Source: an uncultured Candidatus Saccharibacteria bacterium | GTDB lineage: Bacteria; Patescibacteriota; UBA1384; XYA2-FULL-43-10; 1-14-0-10-43-13 | Assembly (NCBI GenBank): GCA_964529405.1 | Contig: CAZGWE010000003.1 | Coordinates: 17,192-81,191, forward strand | DNA length: 64,000 bases | Direction: 5' to 3' | In this document: piece after piece, positions 2,532 through 55,704 of the stretch | Numbering within the stretch: the first letter of the stretch is position 1 | How the letters are laid out: each line of letters opens with the position of its first letter | Made by a program: the position numbers and the translations under genes | The notes under the pieces: generated by a model | The model's database searches: none | The model's input: the letters and a program-made list of their open reading frames with translations, nothing else | Told to the model about the DNA's origin: nothing

Positions 2532-3692
2532 ATGTCTAATCTTATCCCTTATGGGAGACAGTGGATTGACCAGGACGATATTCAAGCCGTCACCACAGTT
2601 TTAAAAAGTGATTATCTGACCCAAGGTCCCAAAGTCGAAGAATTTGAAAAAGCTCTTTGCGACTACACGGGGGCAAAATTTTGCCTTGCTCTTTCTAACG
2701 GCACGGCCGCGCTGCATTTGGCTGTCGCTGCCATGAAGATCGAGAAAAGCATGGAGGGAATTACCTCGCCCATCACCTTCGCCGCCTCCGCCAACTGCCT
2801 GCTCTATAACGGTCTAAAACCGGTTTTTGCCGATATTGATCCTAAAACCTATACGATTAGCCCGGATGAAATTAAAAAGAAGATTACCGCAAAAACCAAG
2901 GTGATAATTCCGGTCGATTTTGCCGGCCAACCAGCCGAGATGGAACAGATCTCCAAGATTGCCAGAGAAAAGGATATCTGTGTCGTTGAAGATGCCGCCC
3001 ACGCCATTGGCTCGCGGTATAATGACGGAAATCATGTCGGTTCGTGTAAATATTCCGATATGACTATTTTTTCCTTCCATCCGGTTAAGACAATCACCAC
3101 CGGCGAGGGTGGAGCAATTACAACTAACAATAGAGAGCTATACAAACATTTGCTATTGTTACGTTCCCACGGTATTACTAAAGATCAGGCTAAACTTGAG
3201 CAAAATCCCGGCCCATGGTATTACGAAATGCAAACGCTCGGTTTTAACTATCGCCTAACCGACATCCAAGCCGCCCTGGGCATCAGCCAATTAAAAAGAC
3301 TTGATAAGTTTGTTGAAAAACGGCGGGAAATTATCCGAAAATACAACAAGGCTTTCAAAGACCTGCCCGATATGGTTGTCCCTTATGAAAAAGATGGCGT
3401 CTTCTCTGCTTTCCATCTCTATGTTTTGCAAATTGATTTTAAAAAAATCGGCACAAGCCGCGAAGAGATAATGGCCAAATTAAGAGAAAAAAATATCGGC
3501 ACGCAGGTTCACTATATCCCCGTTCACCTACAGCCATATTACAGAAACAACTTTGGCTACAAACCAGGCGATTATCCGATTGCTGAACAATATTATGAAA
3601 AAGCAATCAGCCTGCCGCTCTATCCAAAAATGTCTGACTCCGATGTCAAATACGTTATAGAAAATTTCAAACGCGTCTTAGGTGGAAAGTAA
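2532..3692 (+). CDS. pseC: DegT/DnrJ/EryC1-family PLP-dependent sugar aminotransferase (PseC-like)
   Basis: 386 aa. The N-terminus (IPYGRQWIDQDD...) and overall length fit UDP-4-keto-6-deoxy-sugar aminotransferases. It lies immediately downstream of the pseB-like gene with a 9-nt spacer. Confidence 0.75.
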   Translation: MSNLIPYGRQWIDQDDIQAVTTVLKSDYLTQGPKVEEFEKALCDYTGAKFCLALSNGTAALHLAVAAMKIEKSMEGITSPITFAASANCLLYNGLKPVFADIDPKTYTISPDEIKKKITAKTKVIIPVDFAGQPAEMEQISKIAREKDICVVEDAAHAIGSRYNDGNHVGSCKYSDMTIFSFHPVKTITTGEGGAITTNNRELYKHLLLLRSHGITKDQAKLEQNPGPWYYEMQTLGFNYRLTDIQAALGISQLKRLDKFVEKRREIIRKYNKAFKDLPDMVVPYEKDGVFSAFHLYVLQIDFKKIGTSREEIMAKLREKNIGTQVHYIPVHLQPYYRNNFGYKPGDYPIAEQYYEKAISLPLYPKMSDSDVKYVIENFKRVLGGK

Positions 3693-3717: not shown

Positions 3718-4158
3718 GTGATGCCAACAATTTTTATCGGTGCCGACCATGGTGGCTATAAAATTAAAAAACAAGTCAAGCTGTGGCTAAACCAAAAGCT
3801 TATCCCGTTCAATGACCTCGGCGCTGATTCAGAAGATAGCTGCGACTATCCTATATTTGCCCAAAAGGTAGGGCGCGCGGTTGTTGAGAATCAGGGCAAG
3901 GGTATTTTGATCTGCCGAAGCGGCCAAGGCATGTCAATCGCCGCCAACAAGATTAAGGGAATTCGAGCATGCCTTGCTTGGAATCCGGAGGTCGCAATAA
4001 AATCCAGGGAGCACAATGATGCCAATGTTCTATGCTTGCCAGCCGACTATATTAGCAACGACGATAGCGTTAGTATTGTAAAGGCATGGCTTTCTACTCC
4101 ATTTTCTGATGAAATAAGACATATAAAGAGAATCCGGATGTTAGATGAAATAAATTAA
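3718..4158 (+). CDS. RpiB/LacA/LacB-family sugar-phosphate isomerase
   Basis: 146 aa; IGADHGGYKIK N-terminus and ICRSGQGMSIAANK motif characteristic of ribose-5-phosphate isomerase B family. Confidence 0.6.
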   Translation: MMPTIFIGADHGGYKIKKQVKLWLNQKLIPFNDLGADSEDSCDYPIFAQKVGRAVVENQGKGILICRSGQGMSIAANKIKGIRACLAWNPEVAIKSREHNDANVLCLPADYISNDDSVSIVKAWLSTPFSDEIRHIKRIRMLDEIN

Positions 4159-4203: not shown

Positions 4204-5520
4204 ATGTTAAATTTAAAACAAAACGGCATTTTCTTTGCCCAAAAAAGCCATCAACGTTTTTTTGGACCGGCGATCGATCCGGAGATGAGATTGTTTTTGG
4301 TTAATCTTTTTTGGTCTTTTTTGGGCGGCGGCATTGCTTCAGCCGGCTTGCTTTTGGTTAATATTTTAGCCGGTCGCTACATGGGGCCGAGCGAATACGG
4401 TAAGTATAATCTGGTCTTCGTTTTAAGCCAGTTCTTTATCTTATTCGTTTTCTGGGGTTTGGATATTGCCAGTATTAAAGCGATCGCTGCGAGTAAAACC
4501 AGAGCCGAGAAGGGCAAAAATTTATCCAGTGCCTCTGTCTTTTTGGTCTTAACGCTTGGACTTCTTAGTTTGATCGCTTTTCTTGTTTATAAACCGGCGG
4601 CACAATACTTTGCCCTCGATCAGTCGCTTCTCTTCATTTTGCTCATTCTTTCAATCCCGTTGACTCTTAAAGCCATGTTCGATGGCTTTATTCGCGGCCT
4701 AAGACTATTCAAAGTCCAATTTGTCGCCAAAACTCTCGAGTGTTTTACCATCATCGCTCTCTTTGTTTTAATCTTTGTCGTTCTTGATAAAAGAACTTAC
4801 GAATTTTATATCTACGTGCTGATTGCCGGAGCTTTAGTCTCTGCTCTGATTAATTTCTCTAAAGTTAAAAAATACTTCGACGGCTTTGACAAAAAATGTT
4901 TGCAAGACCAGCTATCCCATGGTAAGTTTTACTTTATTGCTACCATTATCGGCACGCTCTTCACTTCACTTGATCGATTATTAGTTGCCAAATATTTAAG
5001 CTACTACGAGCTTGGCATCTATGGTGCCTATTATACTGCTTCTGTCACGCTCACCTACCAGCTAACCCAAATGTTTATCAATGTCTTCTTGCCCTCCATC
5101 GCTCATTTGGAAAACAAAACTTTTGTTAGAAAGATTGATAATATCTTTACTAGAGCCATAATCCCTATTTACTTGACTGTTTTAGTCCTTGTTTTTGTGG
5201 CGGTAAAACTGTTTGGCGCCAGGTTTGGCCTTATCTGGGGTTATGTGTTTGGTTTTAGCCTGCTCGCCACGCTTCAGCTAATACAGGGAATCTATAATAC
5301 AATTGTCCTAACACTGTCCAAAGATTTGTACAAACGATCATTGTTATTAGTAAACATCAGCAATGTCATAATTTTTTCTACTTATATTCCCCTTGTTTAC
5401 TTTAAGCTGATCTCCATCTCTTGGATTTTGGGCATTTTAATCTTAAGCATTACCTCCGCGATAACAATCCAGCGAACCTTTATTGGCATTTCAATCAACA
5501 GGTTTAACCAAAAAACCTGA
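4204..5520 (+). CDS. polysaccharide/oligosaccharide flippase (Wzx-like, MOP superfamily)
   Basis: 438 aa with ~12 predicted hydrophobic helices and no soluble domain; positioned inside a glycan biosynthesis cluster. Confidence 0.55.
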   Translation: MLNLKQNGIFFAQKSHQRFFGPAIDPEMRLFLVNLFWSFLGGGIASAGLLLVNILAGRYMGPSEYGKYNLVFVLSQFFILFVFWGLDIASIKAIAASKTRAEKGKNLSSASVFLVLTLGLLSLIAFLVYKPAAQYFALDQSLLFILLILSIPLTLKAMFDGFIRGLRLFKVQFVAKTLECFTIIALFVLIFVVLDKRTYEFYIYVLIAGALVSALINFSKVKKYFDGFDKKCLQDQLSHGKFYFIATIIGTLFTSLDRLLVAKYLSYYELGIYGAYYTASVTLTYQLTQMFINVFLPSIAHLENKTFVRKIDNIFTRAIIPIYLTVLVLVFVAVKLFGARFGLIWGYVFGFSLLATLQLIQGIYNTIVLTLSKDLYKRSLLLVNISNVIIFSTYIPLVYFKLISISWILGILILSITSAITIQRTFIGISINRFNQKT

Positions 5521-38652: not shown

Positions 38653-38680
38653 AGCATAAAGCAAAAGATAGCTACCAAAC

Positions 38681-38722
38681 AAAAGAATAGCCCTGCCAAA
38701 CGGCGGGCTATTCTTTTTTAAT
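38681..38722. terminator. bidirectional rho-independent terminator between convergent ferredoxin and sod genes
   Basis: GAATAGCCCTGCC-AAAC-GGCGGGCTATTC stem-loop followed by TTTTTT on + strand and A-run on the other side. Confidence 0.6.
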
Positions 38723-39388: not shown

Positions 39389-39524
39389 ACATCCTCCTCT
39401 CCTCCTTGGTTAATTTAAGGTTTGCGCCTTAGATATCCTGCAGCTTAACAAAGGCAATCGGTTGCCAATCATGCAGTTTTCGACTTAGCATTTATCAGTG
39501 ATCGAGATTCAATCACTGATAGAG

Positions 39525-40236: not shown

Positions 40237-40455
40237 TTAATGGGCAAAAACCATCTCTGCGTCTGCAAAGCCGCTTAAAAGTTCAAACTCGGCCCGATCG
40301 GTGCCGCACACGGGACACGACCAGCCTTTATGAATTCCGTCAAAGGGAGTACCGGGAAAAACAAAGTTTTTAGGGTCCCCGTCCCTTGGATCATAAATAT
40401 AACCGCAAGGCCCGCAAATATACTCGGGAAAACCCGCTCGCTTTAAAACTTCCAT
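40237..40455 (-). CDS. rubredoxin
   Basis: CGPCGYIYDP ... WSCPVCG two CxxCG knuckles. Confidence 0.8.
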   Translation of the reverse strand: MEVLKRAGFPEYICGPCGYIYDPRDGDPKNFVFPGTPFDGIHKGWSCPVCGTDRAEFELLSGFADAEMVFAH

Positions 40456-40582
40456 AATCTCCTTTCTTGGGACCTGCACCCCCCGCACACATAAATTCCC
40501 GAATTTGGGCTGTGCTCCAGAAAGGCATCCAGCACCACGATTCCCCGCCCGGGGAATTTACGGCGCTTTTTCCGCAATCCTG

Positions 40583-41041
40583 TCATTGGGATTTAACGGT
40601 ACTGCCAGCTTGGGTCTTTTTGCTAATCTTTTTTTTCTTATTCTCTACGCACTTCTGGCACAAACCATAAACATTGCATTCGATCTGGTCAATCTGTCCC
40701 AGATAACCAAGCTGTTCGGCAATCGCTCCGCCAACTTGCCAGATGTCATGGACAAAAGAACAATGACGGCAAATAAAGTGGTAGTGGCATTTATTATTTC
40801 CATCAAAACGACACTTGCCTTCACCCATATTCAATTGGATAATAAAACCGTTGGCAACCAAATACTTAAGATTGCGATAGACCGTGCCCAAACTGATAGT
40901 CGGCAGGCTTTTTTTGATTTTGTCGTAAACCTCTTCTGCCGTAGGGTGGTGGTCCGCGCCGCGCAAATGTTCAAGTATTAACAAGCGCTGGCTGGTCAAA
41001 CGGTCACCTTGTGCTTTGATCTTTGCTTTTATTTTGTCCAT
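40583..41041 (-). CDS. Fur-family metalloregulator (PerR-like by context)
   Basis: LTSQRLLILEHL, HPTAEEVY, HYHFICRHC ... CQKC motifs. Confidence 0.75.
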   Translation of the reverse strand: MDKIKAKIKAQGDRLTSQRLLILEHLRGADHHPTAEEVYDKIKKSLPTISLGTVYRNLKYLVANGFIIQLNMGEGKCRFDGNNKCHYHFICRHCSFVHDIWQVGGAIAEQLGYLGQIDQIECNVYGLCQKCVENKKKKISKKTQAGSTVKSQ

Positions 41042-41158
41042 CTCGATTAACCAAATTAATGTTACCTCTCCGAACTATTAACTCCCGTCCTAATATTTAG
41101 CGCCTAACAATAACCGATGCGTAATAATAATGAATGGGTATTGATAGTCAGAAACTAA

Positions 41159-41181
41159 TGATAAGATAGCGCTATCAATAA
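41159..41181. promoter_or_regulatory. candidate Fur/PerR-type operator upstream of the first fur-family gene
   Basis: TGATAAGATAGCGCTATCAATAA has a perfect 12-nt palindromic core GATAGCGCTATC (41165-41176) with flanking TGATA/AATAA arms. It lies ~120 nt upstream of the minus-strand start at 41041. Confidence 0.3.
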
Positions 41182-41263
41182 CAACTGTCAATAACCCGCT
41201 GTGGATAAGTCATTTTTTTGGAAGAAATGGCAATATCGGGACATTCCTCGCAATCTGTCAGGC

Positions 41264-41303
41264 AACAAAAAAACGGGGAAACCGGTATATGCCGTGCCCG
41301 TTT
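41264..41303 (-). terminator. rho-independent terminator downstream of second rubredoxin
   Basis: Minus-strand AAACGGG-loop-CCCGTTT stem followed by TTTTTGTT. Confidence 0.5.
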
Positions 41304-41345
41304 ATGGCTATCGAATGTAGTTATTAGACAGGCTCTAAGAGAATG

Positions 41346-41579
41346 CTATCCTTCCACTTTTGATCCCTCTAAACCGGTAGTGTTTTGATAGTACTCGTTT
41401 TCAGGCTCAAATTCTGCTTTTGTCACGCCGCACAACGGACACAACCAGTCGTCTGGAATATCCTCGAATGCTGTGCCAGCTGGAATGCCGCCCTCCGGGT
41501 CCCCCTCGGCCGGATCATAAACATAACCGCAGGGCGGACATAAATAACGCTTTGAAGTTTTGTCCTTAGATATAATCAT
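41346..41579 (-). CDS. rubredoxin (with C-terminal extension)
   Basis: [10 protein letters not shown] ... WLCPLCG motifs. Confidence 0.8.
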
Positions 41580-41773
41580 TCTCTCTAAAAAGTTAAGCTG
41601 ATTAATTACAGTTTAAAATCCTAATTGCTAATTTCTAAATCTCTTCGAGAGCCTGAGGACTCCTCAGAGCCTCGAACGGCCTAAACAGATTCTAATGTTC
41701 AAATGTCAAAACGTTTTGAGATTATTTTTTGCATTTTGATATTCTTTAGGATTTAGGATTTCGTGCTTAGGAT

Positions 41774-41813
41774 TTATTGGTATTTGCAACACATGTGTTG
41801 CAAATACCAATAA
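41774..41813. repeat. perfect 40-bp palindrome TTATTGGTATTTGCAACACATGTGTTGCAAATACCAATAA
   Basis: Read directly; centre between 41793/41794. It extends to 42 bp with one flanking pair and overlaps the stop codon and last 13 codons of the Fur paralogue. Confidence 0.9.
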
Positions 41814-42223
41814 ACATAGTACTCAACCTGCTTGATTTTGCCCATACTTTTCAGATCTTTGGCAATGCGGCGGCTGGCCTGCCAGATGTCGTAAATCTTA
41901 ACGCACTCAGTGCAGATGAAGTGCCCGTGATACTGAGTGTTGGCATCATATCGGCTCTTGCCGTCATTTGCCACCACTTGGATAATAAAGCCATTATCAA
42001 CCGAATATTTTAAATTGCGATAGACGGTTGAAATATTGATTTTAGGTAAATCCTTTTTAACTGCCTCGAATATGTCCTCTGCCGTCGGATGGTTGCTAAC
42101 ACTCCGCAGATATTGAAGTATCAAGGTACGCTGTTTGGTCAAACGATTTCCGGTATTGTTGACGATCTCTTTGATATCCAAGACATCGTCTGCACACATT
42201 TCTTCCACCATATTTACCCTCAC
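41774..42223 (-). CDS. Fur-family metalloregulator paralogue (PerR/Fur-like), atypical C-terminus
   Basis: LTKQRTLILQYL, HPTAEDIF, HGHFICTEC motifs. The last 13 codons are encoded by a perfect palindrome, and the second CxxC pair is replaced by MCC. Confidence 0.7.
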   Translation of the reverse strand: MRVNMVEEMCADDVLDIKEIVNNTGNRLTKQRTLILQYLRSVSNHPTAEDIFEAVKKDLPKINISTVYRNLKYSVDNGFIIQVVANDGKSRYDANTQYHGHFICTECVKIYDIWQASRRIAKDLKSMGKIKQVEYYVYWYLQHMCCKYQ

Positions 42224-42615
42224 TATTGCTATTAAGTTGCATTAACAATGCACCGCTTATTGCAAATTAGTGTCAATAATTAATCAGTGGATAACTTACT
42301 TACCAGACAGAACGTAAACCTGGACAGTATTTTTTTCAAAATAATGGTTAGTATGGAAAAGTTGTCTCTTGGCTGGAGCTTGCGCTGTCCTCGCCCCCGT
42401 TCTGATTAGCTATGGCAAAGTAGTAAATTAAAGCATAAATCAACCCGCCGATGATTACATAAAGCAGAATCCACTGCCAAAGCGGACGCTTCCCATAGCC
42501 TCGATTTTTATTGTCTTCTTCTTGATAATTTTCAGATATTTGTACTCCTTTTGCCTTTTATAGCTCAAATGCAAATACAATCAAATGCCGCTAATCAATG
42601 ATTAACAGCAATTCT

Positions 42616-42705
42616 TGGCGGAGAGGGTGGGATTTGAACCCACGAGGAGCTTGCACCCCTGGCTGTTTTCAAGACAGCTGCACTAGACCGCTATGCGACC
42701 TCTCC
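42616..42705 (-). tRNA. tRNA-Ser (anticodon UGA)
   Basis: On the minus strand this folds as a cloverleaf. The acceptor stem is GGAGAGG/CCUCUCC, the D-stem has 3 bp, and the anticodon stem GCUGU/ACAGC carries the loop CUUGAAA. There is a long variable arm, a T-arm GUGGG-UUCAAAU-CCCAC, and the 3' CCA is encoded. Confidence 0.85.
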
Positions 42706-54828: not shown

Positions 54829-55704
54829 TTAACCACCTTTTTTTCTGATGGTAATGTTTACCCCGCTTTTCTTCTCCTGTTTTTTTAGGCGCCTGTCCAT
54901 AATACGGGAGACAAAATCTTTCTTTCCAGGTTTTTCCGCCTCAACTTCATGGACAATTTCTTCGACATCAACTTTGGCCACTTCTTTTGATTCCTCTTTG
55001 CGAATTTTAATATTTTTATTGACATACCATTGCTGGGAGATAATAAACAAATTGGTCACAATCCAGTAGAGAGCAAGCGCCGCCGGCACGGTCCGGCCGA
55101 TAAAAAGCGTCATAACCGGAAAGATATAAGTCATCTGTTTCATCATCATAGCAGTCATGTCCTGCTCGCCTGCTTTGCCAGTGTTAATCTGGGGCGGCAT
55201 CATCAATAGGGAAAGAACCAGCTGGGTCAGACCGGCGATAATCGGCAAAACCCACAAATCCGGCTTGGAGAGGTCGATACCCCATAAAAAGGTATTAACG
55301 CTCTCCGGATGGGGCACGAAAGAGTAAAGCAAAGAAAAACGCGAAGTATCCAGGCCGTTACGAAAGACCTGGTATAAAACAAGAATGATCGGCAGCTGGA
55401 TCAATTGGGGCAGGCAGGAACCGAAGGGCGAGACGCCTTCCTCTTTGTACAGGTTCATTAGAGCTTTGGCCTGCTCCTGCTGGTCTTTGATTTCGGCCCG
55501 GAGTTTATTGATTTTCGGCTGCAATAATTGAAGACGCATTTGAGCCCTGGCCGCTTTGAGCGAGCTGGGCAAAAGAATAATTCTGATTAAGACGGTTAGA
55601 AGAATTATCGCCCAGCCAATCGAGTGGCCCGGCACCAGCCAAGCCAAAAAAATCAATAGGTTATAGAGAGGCTGATATAAAAGCACTTTTAAAAGGTTCT
55701 TCAT
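54829..55704 (-). CDS. yidC: membrane protein insertase YidC (short form)
   Basis: 291 aa; VLIRIILLPSSLK, PFGSCLPQLIQLPI YidC/Oxa1 motifs. Confidence 0.85.
   Translation of the reverse strand: MKNLLKVLLYQPLYNLLIFLAWLVPGHSIGWAIILLTVLIRIILLPSSLKAARAQMRLQLLQPKINKLRAEIKDQQEQAKALMNLYKEEGVSPFGSCLPQLIQLPIILVLYQVFRNGLDTSRFSLLYSFVPHPESVNTFLWGIDLSKPDLWVLPIIAGLTQLVLSLLMMPPQINTGKAGEQDMTAMMMKQMTYIFPVMTLFIGRTVPAALALYWIVTNLFIISQQWYVNKNIKIRKEESKEVAKVDVEEIVHEVEAEKPGKKDFVSRIMDRRLKKQEKKSGVNITIRKKGG

Follow-up and report, generated by a model that had tools for sequence, protein, structure and literature searches.

The window analysed here is a stretch of 64,000 nucleotides from an uncultured Candidatus Saccharibacteria bacterium (NCBI contig CAZGWE010000003.1). 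It carries on its minus strand two copies of a gene for a Fur-family regulator, fur1 and fur2, and the 3' end of fur2 is formed by a perfect palindrome of 42 bp. Each copy belongs to a fur-rubredoxin module, which is duplicated in tandem (40237-42223, minus strand), the order of genes being fur2-rub2-fur1-rub1-prx-sod. Relatives (L001, L097 and L098) have a single fur-rubredoxin module, in a unit of fur, rubredoxin, peroxiredoxin and SOD, and fur2 and rub2 are closer to these single-copy relatives than fur1 and rub1 are. The named relatives are Patescibacteria, so a candidate-phyla-radiation bacterium is the probable source of the DNA. The product of fur2 (NCBI protein P0001, whose start is placed at 42199) scores 86.3 bits against the Pfam FUR model (PF01475), for which the curated cut-off is 23.1, and its best match among solved structures is PerR of Bacillus subtilis. 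The features on which the argument depends are the following.

41774..42223, minus strand: fur2 open reading frame (ORF) in its present reading, a PerR-like Fur-family gene with a frameshifted end, ...YWYLQHMCCKYQ and stop.
41773..41814, 42 bp: perfect palindrome, TTTATTGGTATTTGCAACACA up to the axis and TGTGTTGCAAATACCAATAAA beyond it, characterised by arm search, shuffles and folding.
41809..41810, minus strand: one surplus T, assignable to either position of the TT in TAT-T-GGT; it shifts the frame by +1 in comparison with every relative and does away with the sole bulge of the quasi-palindrome.
41767..41808, minus strand: ancestral (+1) C-terminal frame GICNTCVANTNKS, with its stop TAA at 41767-41769 and the second CxxC of the Zn(Cys)4 site.
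41794..41814, minus strand: 5' arm of the palindrome in gene orientation, made of the conserved codons (V)Y-G-I-C-N-T and the surplus T (codon alignment).
41773..41793, minus strand: 3' arm in gene orientation, made of the Cys2 codon and the tail codons V-A-N-T-N-K in the ancestral frame (codon alignment and tail consensus).
41346..41579, minus strand: rubredoxin gene downstream of fur2, in conserved fur-rubredoxin synteny.
40583..41041, minus strand: paralogue fur1, with the second CxxC intact and the homologous site free of any palindrome.

The structural Zn(Cys)4 site of Fur-family proteins consists of two CxxC motifs, about 40 residues apart. The first of these (CTEC) is in place in fur2 and the second is found only in the +1 frame; in frame 0 the pattern [YF]-G-x-C-x-x-C has no match, and close relatives read V/A-Y-G-x-C-x-x-C. 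A second CxxC straight after [YF]-G is present in all 11 homologues of the first search, in the five closest relatives (56-63% identity) and in 18 members of the wider family. At the DNA level, fur2 reads GTT TAT T GGT ATT TGC AAC ACA TGT, fur1 reads GTT TAT GGT TTG TGC CAG AAG TGC, with no surplus base, and the L001 orthologue reads GTG TAC GGT GTC TGT CAG AGT TGT. Exactly one extra base, a T, thus falls between the conserved Tyr and Gly codons of fur2, and codon alignment found it in none of the relatives at 51-63% identity, which all have V/A-Y-G. Translation of the palindrome in three frames showed that the +1 frame, ...FIGICNTCVANTNKS and stop, keeps GICNTC and ends seven codons past Cys2. 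With the surplus T removed, fur2 translates to VYGICNTCVANTNKS, with the stop at 41767-41769, and in an alignment with B. subtilis PerR (2fe3, E = 6.4e-22) the repaired end falls on the C-terminus, VYGICNTC standing against IYGVCQEC with C136 and C139. The same repair raises the score against the PerR NCBIfam model from 88.9 to 98.3 bits (+9.4), the equivalog cut-off of 180 being reached by neither version; fur2 is PerR-like and stands outside the curated PerR equivalog.

Since the homologues keep the second CxxC and the surplus T displaces it to the +1 frame, the odd C-terminus of fur2 is, as judged from the codon alignments, a frameshift of 1 nt and not foreign sequence, and the ancestral end is still legible inside the palindrome. 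After Val-Tyr, the frameshift swaps G-I-C-N-T-C-V-A-N-T-N-K-S for W-Y-L-Q-H-M-C-C-K-Y-Q. An earlier note on this DNA had proposed that the palindrome overwrote the original C-terminus. It was right that the end is altered and that the palindrome is involved in the alteration; the original end is nonetheless still encoded, in the +1 frame, and only a few non-conserved tail codons past the second Cys look as if they had been rewritten through inverted copying. The paralogue was also thought to end ...VENKKKK at the equivalent place, which was a misreading, as fur1 runs on for 14 more residues. When the 3' ends of orthologous genes were compared, no relative had the frameshifted C-terminus, so the comparison provided no instance of the same protein end encoded without palindromic DNA. 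Programmed ribosomal frameshifting was considered and rejected: the +1 shift would occur at UAU-U, which lacks the context of a slippery sequence or a stop codon, and the shifts promoted by a downstream stem would tend to be -1 and yield the wrong frame.

The palindrome extends to a maximum of 42 bp, with arms of 21 nt and no spacer, around an axis at 41793/41794. The next-best perfect palindrome without a spacer in the window has arms of 9 nt and is the only other one whose arms reach 8 nt. In 100 shuffles that preserved dinucleotides, the longest arm to appear measured 12 nt, against the 21 nt observed. Its size is far above chance expectation. As a single strand it folds with -26.3 kcal/mol as RNA (z -5.65) and with -18.9 kcal/mol as DNA (z -7.1). 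These results bear out three claims of the earlier note: that the sequence is an exact palindrome (the 40-mer then quoted sits at 41774-41813, inside the maximal 42 bp), that it is rare by chance, and that the minus-strand gene ends within it, the ORF terminating in ...VEYYVYWYLQHMCCKYQ with its stop inside the palindrome.

Evidence from independent libraries indicates that the core of this structure is present in the DNA. The fur1 protein (P0017) also occurs in two Logan assemblies, from runs SRR4343428 and SRR4343430, whose contigs match the window with 100% identity along 5,628 and 3,324 nt. They both start at 41808 (reading GGTATTTGCAACACA up to the axis and TGTG... beyond it), exactly 15 nt from the axis, which is the distance at which a de Bruijn graph with k=31 must fold back when it meets a perfect palindrome that is 32 bp or longer. 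The position of the breaks therefore places the core of the palindrome in the raw reads of independent libraries, and the core was not invented by assembly. A Logan contig carrying the 5' part of fur2 would be expected to end ...GTTTAT(T)GGTATTTGCAACACATGTGTTGCAAATACC.

A close relation links the surplus T to the perfection of the stem. Without it, the sequence is a perfect core of 32 bp (arms of 16 nt) flanked by TTTAT and AATAAA, which provide five more base pairs past a one-base bulge; the surplus T pairs with the unpaired A of AATAAA and lengthens the arms from 16 to 21 nt. Among the 271 distinct single-base insertions possible in a span of 90 nt, this is the only one that yields arms of 21 nt, so that a random indel, whether by mutation or by sequencing error, would be a coincidence of about 0.4%. 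Across 335 single-base indels, arms of at least 20 nt arise only from the T insertion (21) and from deletion of the bulged A (20). The surplus T lies within a pre-existing imperfect inverted repeat and matches the template offered by the opposite arm, as is characteristic of quasipalindrome mutations, and it looks templated by that arm.

The 3' arm bears a similar signature. Past the second Cys, the tail consensus of the family is C-x-x-C-[LV]-x-N-K, and the tails read TGT TTG GGG AAT AAA TAA in L095, TGT CTT GGC AAT AAA in L096 and TGC GTA GAG AAT AAG in fur1. The tail of fur2, TGT GTT GCA AAT ACC AAT AAA, is about 6 nt longer than these three, and within the 3' arm GTTGCAAATACC is identical to the reverse complement of the conserved upstream GGTATTTGCAAC, which holds the Gly-Ile-Cys codons. 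L096 carries an identical GGTATTTGCAA at the position of the 5' arm. An insertion or cluster of changes that equals the reverse complement of its neighbour, as in stems produced by template switching, is thus found here, with the caveat of the tail length of L001; the 3' arm looks copied from the 5' arm.

For 51 distinct loci of the Fur family, pairing was scored with 15-nt arms around the homologous centre, where the x2 codon meets the Cys2 codon. Watson-Crick pairs out of 15 numbered 15 in fur2, 9 in L001, 8 in L096, 4 in fur1, 3 in L097 and 0 in L095, against a background of 4.0 +/- 2.2 for the 51 loci; with three G-U pairs in addition, L001 holds the top rank of the 51. The perfect palindrome is missing from the four orthologues and from fur1, and is lineage-specific. 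At the position homologous to the axis, self-complementarity above background was observed in L001 (2529-2558) and L096 (about 4373-4402) and in neither of the other two orthologues; it may represent an older, decayed stem, independent events seeded by shared codon complementarity, or chance.

On balance, the palindrome is probably a lineage-specific product of template switching at a quasipalindrome, which frameshifted one copy of a duplicated PerR-like gene, and not a functional site or a foreign insert. The starting point would have been ancestral codons with weak self-complementarity, ATTTGC (Ile-Cys) facing GGCAAT (Gly-Asn) and TTTAT (Val-Tyr) facing AATAAA (Asn-Lys). During replication, the nascent strand would have turned back on itself at ACATGT, the natural centre (Thr-Cys2), and the Gly-Ile-Cys-Asn codons would have been copied as their reverse complement into the unconstrained tail past Cys2, with a gain of about 6 nt in frame. 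This would have left the 32-bp perfect core with its TTTAT and AATAAA flanks and the one-base bulge. In a later step, the direction of which is opposite to that of the first copying, one T entered the 5' arm, presumably with the AA of the ancestral 3'-arm AATAAA as its template. The sequence at this point is a perfect 42 bp, the frame is shifted past Val-Tyr and the second CxxC is lost.

As a consequence, fur2 would probably be a crippled or inactive copy. In B. subtilis Zur, the substitutions C95S, C98S, C132S and C135S led to partial or full loss of repressor activity, and a stable Zn structure was not formed; a fur2 protein lacking the second CxxC, as the frameshifted product does, is by this analogy probably crippled. 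Its loss would be tolerated because of the tandem duplicate, fur1 with its rubredoxin, next door. In addition, the conserved Cys-Asn found in almost every relative, within the E-C-N that precedes V-Y-G, is Tyr-Tyr in fur2 (codons TAC TAT at 41816-41821, minus strand). This E-Y-Y is a loss of a conserved Cys separate from the frameshift, and, together with a degenerate promoter box and the tandem duplicate, it fits a relaxed constraint on fur2.

Mutagenesis of this kind is an established mechanism. Template switching turns quasipalindromes into perfect inverted repeats and produces frameshifts, which it was first invoked to explain (PMC7202029, citing Ripley 1982); in Proteobacteria, inverted repeats that are imperfect become perfect by such correction (PMC5941160), and perfect stems are made by template switching in single events (PMC8794818). 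Ripley's model, the thyA hotspot of Escherichia coli and the lacZ reporters QP5 and QP6 (PMC7202029) share with fur2 a coding frameshift which is templated by the opposite arm and perfects an imperfect repeat. The case of fur2 differs in being inferred from a metagenome-derived genome compared with distant relatives, with no mutation event observed; moreover, its palindrome of 42 bp without a spacer is longer than the 18-bp reporter quasipalindrome. The stems attributed to template switching (PMC8794818; PMC5941160; the four-point model of PMC5453318) are alike in that changes in an arm and a short insertion equal the adjacent reverse complement, and in that the stem is perfect with no stepwise compensatory substitutions. 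Those studies concern mostly RNA genes, non-coding DNA and short bacterial repeats, whereas in fur2 both arms are protein-coding and the last event breaks a metal-binding motif. Long perfect inverted repeats in coding sequence, with both arms translated, are known from the mitochondria of Nematomorpha (PMC6649704), but there they are numerous, reach 284 bp and leave the genes intact, whereas fur2 is a single bacterial case of 42 bp with a frameshift.

Several observations weigh against this interpretation. The Logan contigs end one base before the surplus T. The tail of L001 has the same length as that of fur2 and shares its ACC and AAA codons, which qualifies the insertion proposed for the first step; this tail and the top-ranked complementarity of L001 are compatible with an older hairpin, possibly a selected one. 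No relative closer than about 60% turned up in the collections searched, which were species representatives of the Genome Taxonomy Database (GTDB; best 42%), metagenome contigs (best 38%) and proteins, so that the ancestral states and the order of events can only be inferred. A perfect 42 bp across a protein divergence of about 40% requires either a recent origin or active maintenance, and the data fit both. Lastly, the loss of function is deduced from other Fur-family proteins, and the new tail of fur2 still has a His and two Cys.

The point about the Logan contigs leads to the question of whether the surplus T is genuine. It is on record from a single NCBI contig only, the cluster of P0001 has one member, and the exact P0001 product was not found in the contig index; the Logan contig with the next upstream gene starts at the tRNA-Ser gene, and the two small ORFs in between are without record. 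Hairpin templates are also expected, from the mechanism described in PMC7202029, to be prone to polymerase template switching both in vitro and in vivo. The T, and with it the frameshift and the pairing of the outer 10 bp, could then be an artefact of sequencing, library preparation or polishing, or a minority variant, in which case the real gene would be intact, with a 32-bp perfect core and a bulged outer stem. We consider both this explanation and the intact gene that would follow from it quite unlikely. For k from 15 to 55, the junction containing the T requires 9-54 k-mers which cannot be obtained from the T-less sequence, reverse complements included, so a de Bruijn assembler could not have made it; long intact ORFs cover the rest of the window, where no indel noise was seen; and the extra base sits in a TT dinucleotide rather than in a homopolymer run. 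A second rival explanation is that the stem is a selected RNA or DNA hairpin at the junction between perR and rubredoxin, its perfection maintained by selection and the frameshift being a tolerated side effect. This is possible, although we hold it to be unlikely, and the same reserve applies to its variants, in which the hairpin stabilises the 3' end of the mRNA, is a processing site of RNase III type or acts as a transcriptional pause uncoupling the regulator from its effector. In its favour are the high stability of the RNA stem, its location between the regulator and an apparently co-transcribed rubredoxin with no operator or strong promoter in the spacer, the raised complementarity in two of the four orthologues (L001 and L096), two positions which differ on both sides between fur2 and L001, and a second hairpin right after the prx stop (39493-39521). 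Conservation of the hairpin looked promising with the first-ranked L001 and weaker once L095 (0/15) and L097 (3/15) had been scored; the paralogue does not have it either. The whole stem lies inside the ORF of the ancestral frame, where ribosomes would melt it. There is no T-run within reach of the stem on either strand, the terminator scan made no call at the site, and Rfam gave only generic miRNA-precursor matches of 20-24 bits, against gathering scores of 50-117. A terminator or RNA stability element, as suggested in the earlier note, thus finds no backing in these searches. Rho-independent terminators and intercistronic stabiliser hairpins are likewise stable stem-loops at the 3' end of a gene within an operon, but the stem of fur2 differs from them in having no U-tract, in its AT-rich 21 bp with essentially no designed loop, in lying inside the ancestral ORF and in not being conserved in orthologues. 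Furthermore, template switching by itself only raises complementarity, so that selection is not required to explain the stem. A further version of the idea holds that the 42-bp stem is a selected regulatory element, either a hairpin for RNA processing or stability or a cruciform DNA site, which template switching maintains and by which the regulator is toggled from on to off. This we regard as improbable; if it were true, the regulator gene's own 3' structure would decide whether the gene is in frame.

Two other possibilities raised in the earlier note are that the palindrome is an operator, perhaps for the regulator itself, or the remnant of a mobile element. The former can be judged against a site upstream of the gene, which serves as comparator:

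42257..42279, minus strand: inverted repeat resembling an operator, which overlaps the -35 of the fur2 promoter and reads TTATTGACACTAATTTGCAATAA on the gene strand, with a degenerate right half.

The promoters of orthologous genes share a conserved 23-bp box, TTATTGA-N9-TCAATAA (TTATTGACA-N5-TTATCAATAA), which has the Fur-type 7-1-7 core TGACAATNATTATCA and overlaps the -35; it is conserved in L001 (about 2070-2092), L096 (about 3934-3956) and L097 (about 3563-3585), and in fur2 its right half has changed from ATTATC to ATTTGC. This inverted repeat is predicted to be, probably, an autoregulatory operator. It is very improbable that the palindrome is a protein-binding operator of the same sort, for example for a PerR-like regulator, at the end of fur2 and upstream of rubredoxin. 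Inverted repeats of the form TTATTG...CAATAA are enriched in the window (3 found against 0.23 expected), one of them in the fur2 promoter, and the 8-mer ATTTGCAA is common to an arm of the palindrome and the right half of the promoter box. The enrichment, however, stems from promoter -35 and Fur-type boxes and not from the palindrome, in which the outer hexamers are N28 apart instead of N11 and the even symmetry cannot seat an on-axis 7-1-7 box. Its TTATTGG consists of the conserved Val-Tyr-Gly codons with the inserted T, TTGCAAAT shows no enrichment (5 found against 6.3 expected), and the sequence of the site is not conserved in relatives. The resemblance to Fur/PerR boxes is that of an AT-rich dyad by Fur-family genes, with the TTATTG and CAATAA hexamers of the fur2 promoter box; spacing and symmetry are wrong, the 7-1-7 core is not matched, and the sequence is set by codons. 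A mobile or repetitive element (a REP- or MITE-like sequence, an integron attC, or the end of a transposon that recognises hairpins) is scarcely credible as the source. The palindrome does adjoin a spacer of 194 nt, unusually long for this gene pair, which is flanked by 26-nt inverted repeats of 77% identity, the second of them overlapping the first 3 nt of the palindrome. On the other hand, the codon alignment shows each arm to be homologous to the 3' end of the gene in which it lies. In the 64 kb, where the half-site was searched with up to three mismatches, neither the arm nor the flanking repeat nor the internal hairpin of the spacer has a second copy; the 30-nt core has no exact match in metagenome contigs, and blastn of palindrome and spacer gave no match in plasmid and phage collections. 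An attC site was rejected on inspection, as the core sites (RYYYAAC/GTTRRRY), the extrahelical bases and an integron context are absent.

The spacer itself, between fur2 and rubredoxin (41580-41773), compares with 14-130 nt in relatives. It contains the inverted repeats at 41616-41641 and 41750-41775, ATCCTAA repeats and an internal GC-rich hairpin (41644-41676); no other copy was found in the window and no match in Rfam or in the plasmid and phage collections. Possible explanations are a small insertion that has decayed and a structured leader. A third TTATTG-N11-CAATAA repeat (TTATTGATTTTCGGCTGCAATAA), with the spacing of the fur2 box, lies at 55505-55527, inside the ORF 54829..55704 on the minus strand. 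At the other end of the gene cluster, the hairpin after the peroxiredoxin stop has a stem of 10 bp, and a canonical terminator of stem and T-run is located past the SOD gene (about 38660-38700), an arrangement which suggests one operon with an internal hairpin. Upstream of fur2, a small ORF resembling a membrane protein (...RPLWQWILLYVIIGGLIYALIYYFAIANQ..., 42348-42540, minus strand) has a good ribosome-binding site, AAAGGAG, but none of the start codons ATG, GTG and TTG where one would be expected; a small protein missed by annotation, with an unusual start codon, is a possible explanation. A tRNA-Ser(TGA) gene follows at 42616-42705, and the independent Logan contig L101 breaks exactly at its start, which suggests that the tRNA sequence is repeated elsewhere in that metagenome.

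The palindrome of fur2 is, within the strength of the interpretation favoured here, a natural instance of a known mutational mechanism and not a new kind of element. The database protein P0001 ends in the frameshifted sequence and is best regarded as a probable pseudogene or variant, and long perfect palindromes at gene ends call for a check of all three frames before a function is proposed. Knowledge of quasipalindrome template switching has come mainly from work in phage T4, E. coli and yeast reporter systems. If reads confirm the surplus T, fur2 would be a clean natural example of this mutagenesis in an uncultivated bacterium, in which one mechanism built a long palindrome from coding sequence and removed the metal-binding motif of a stress regulator.

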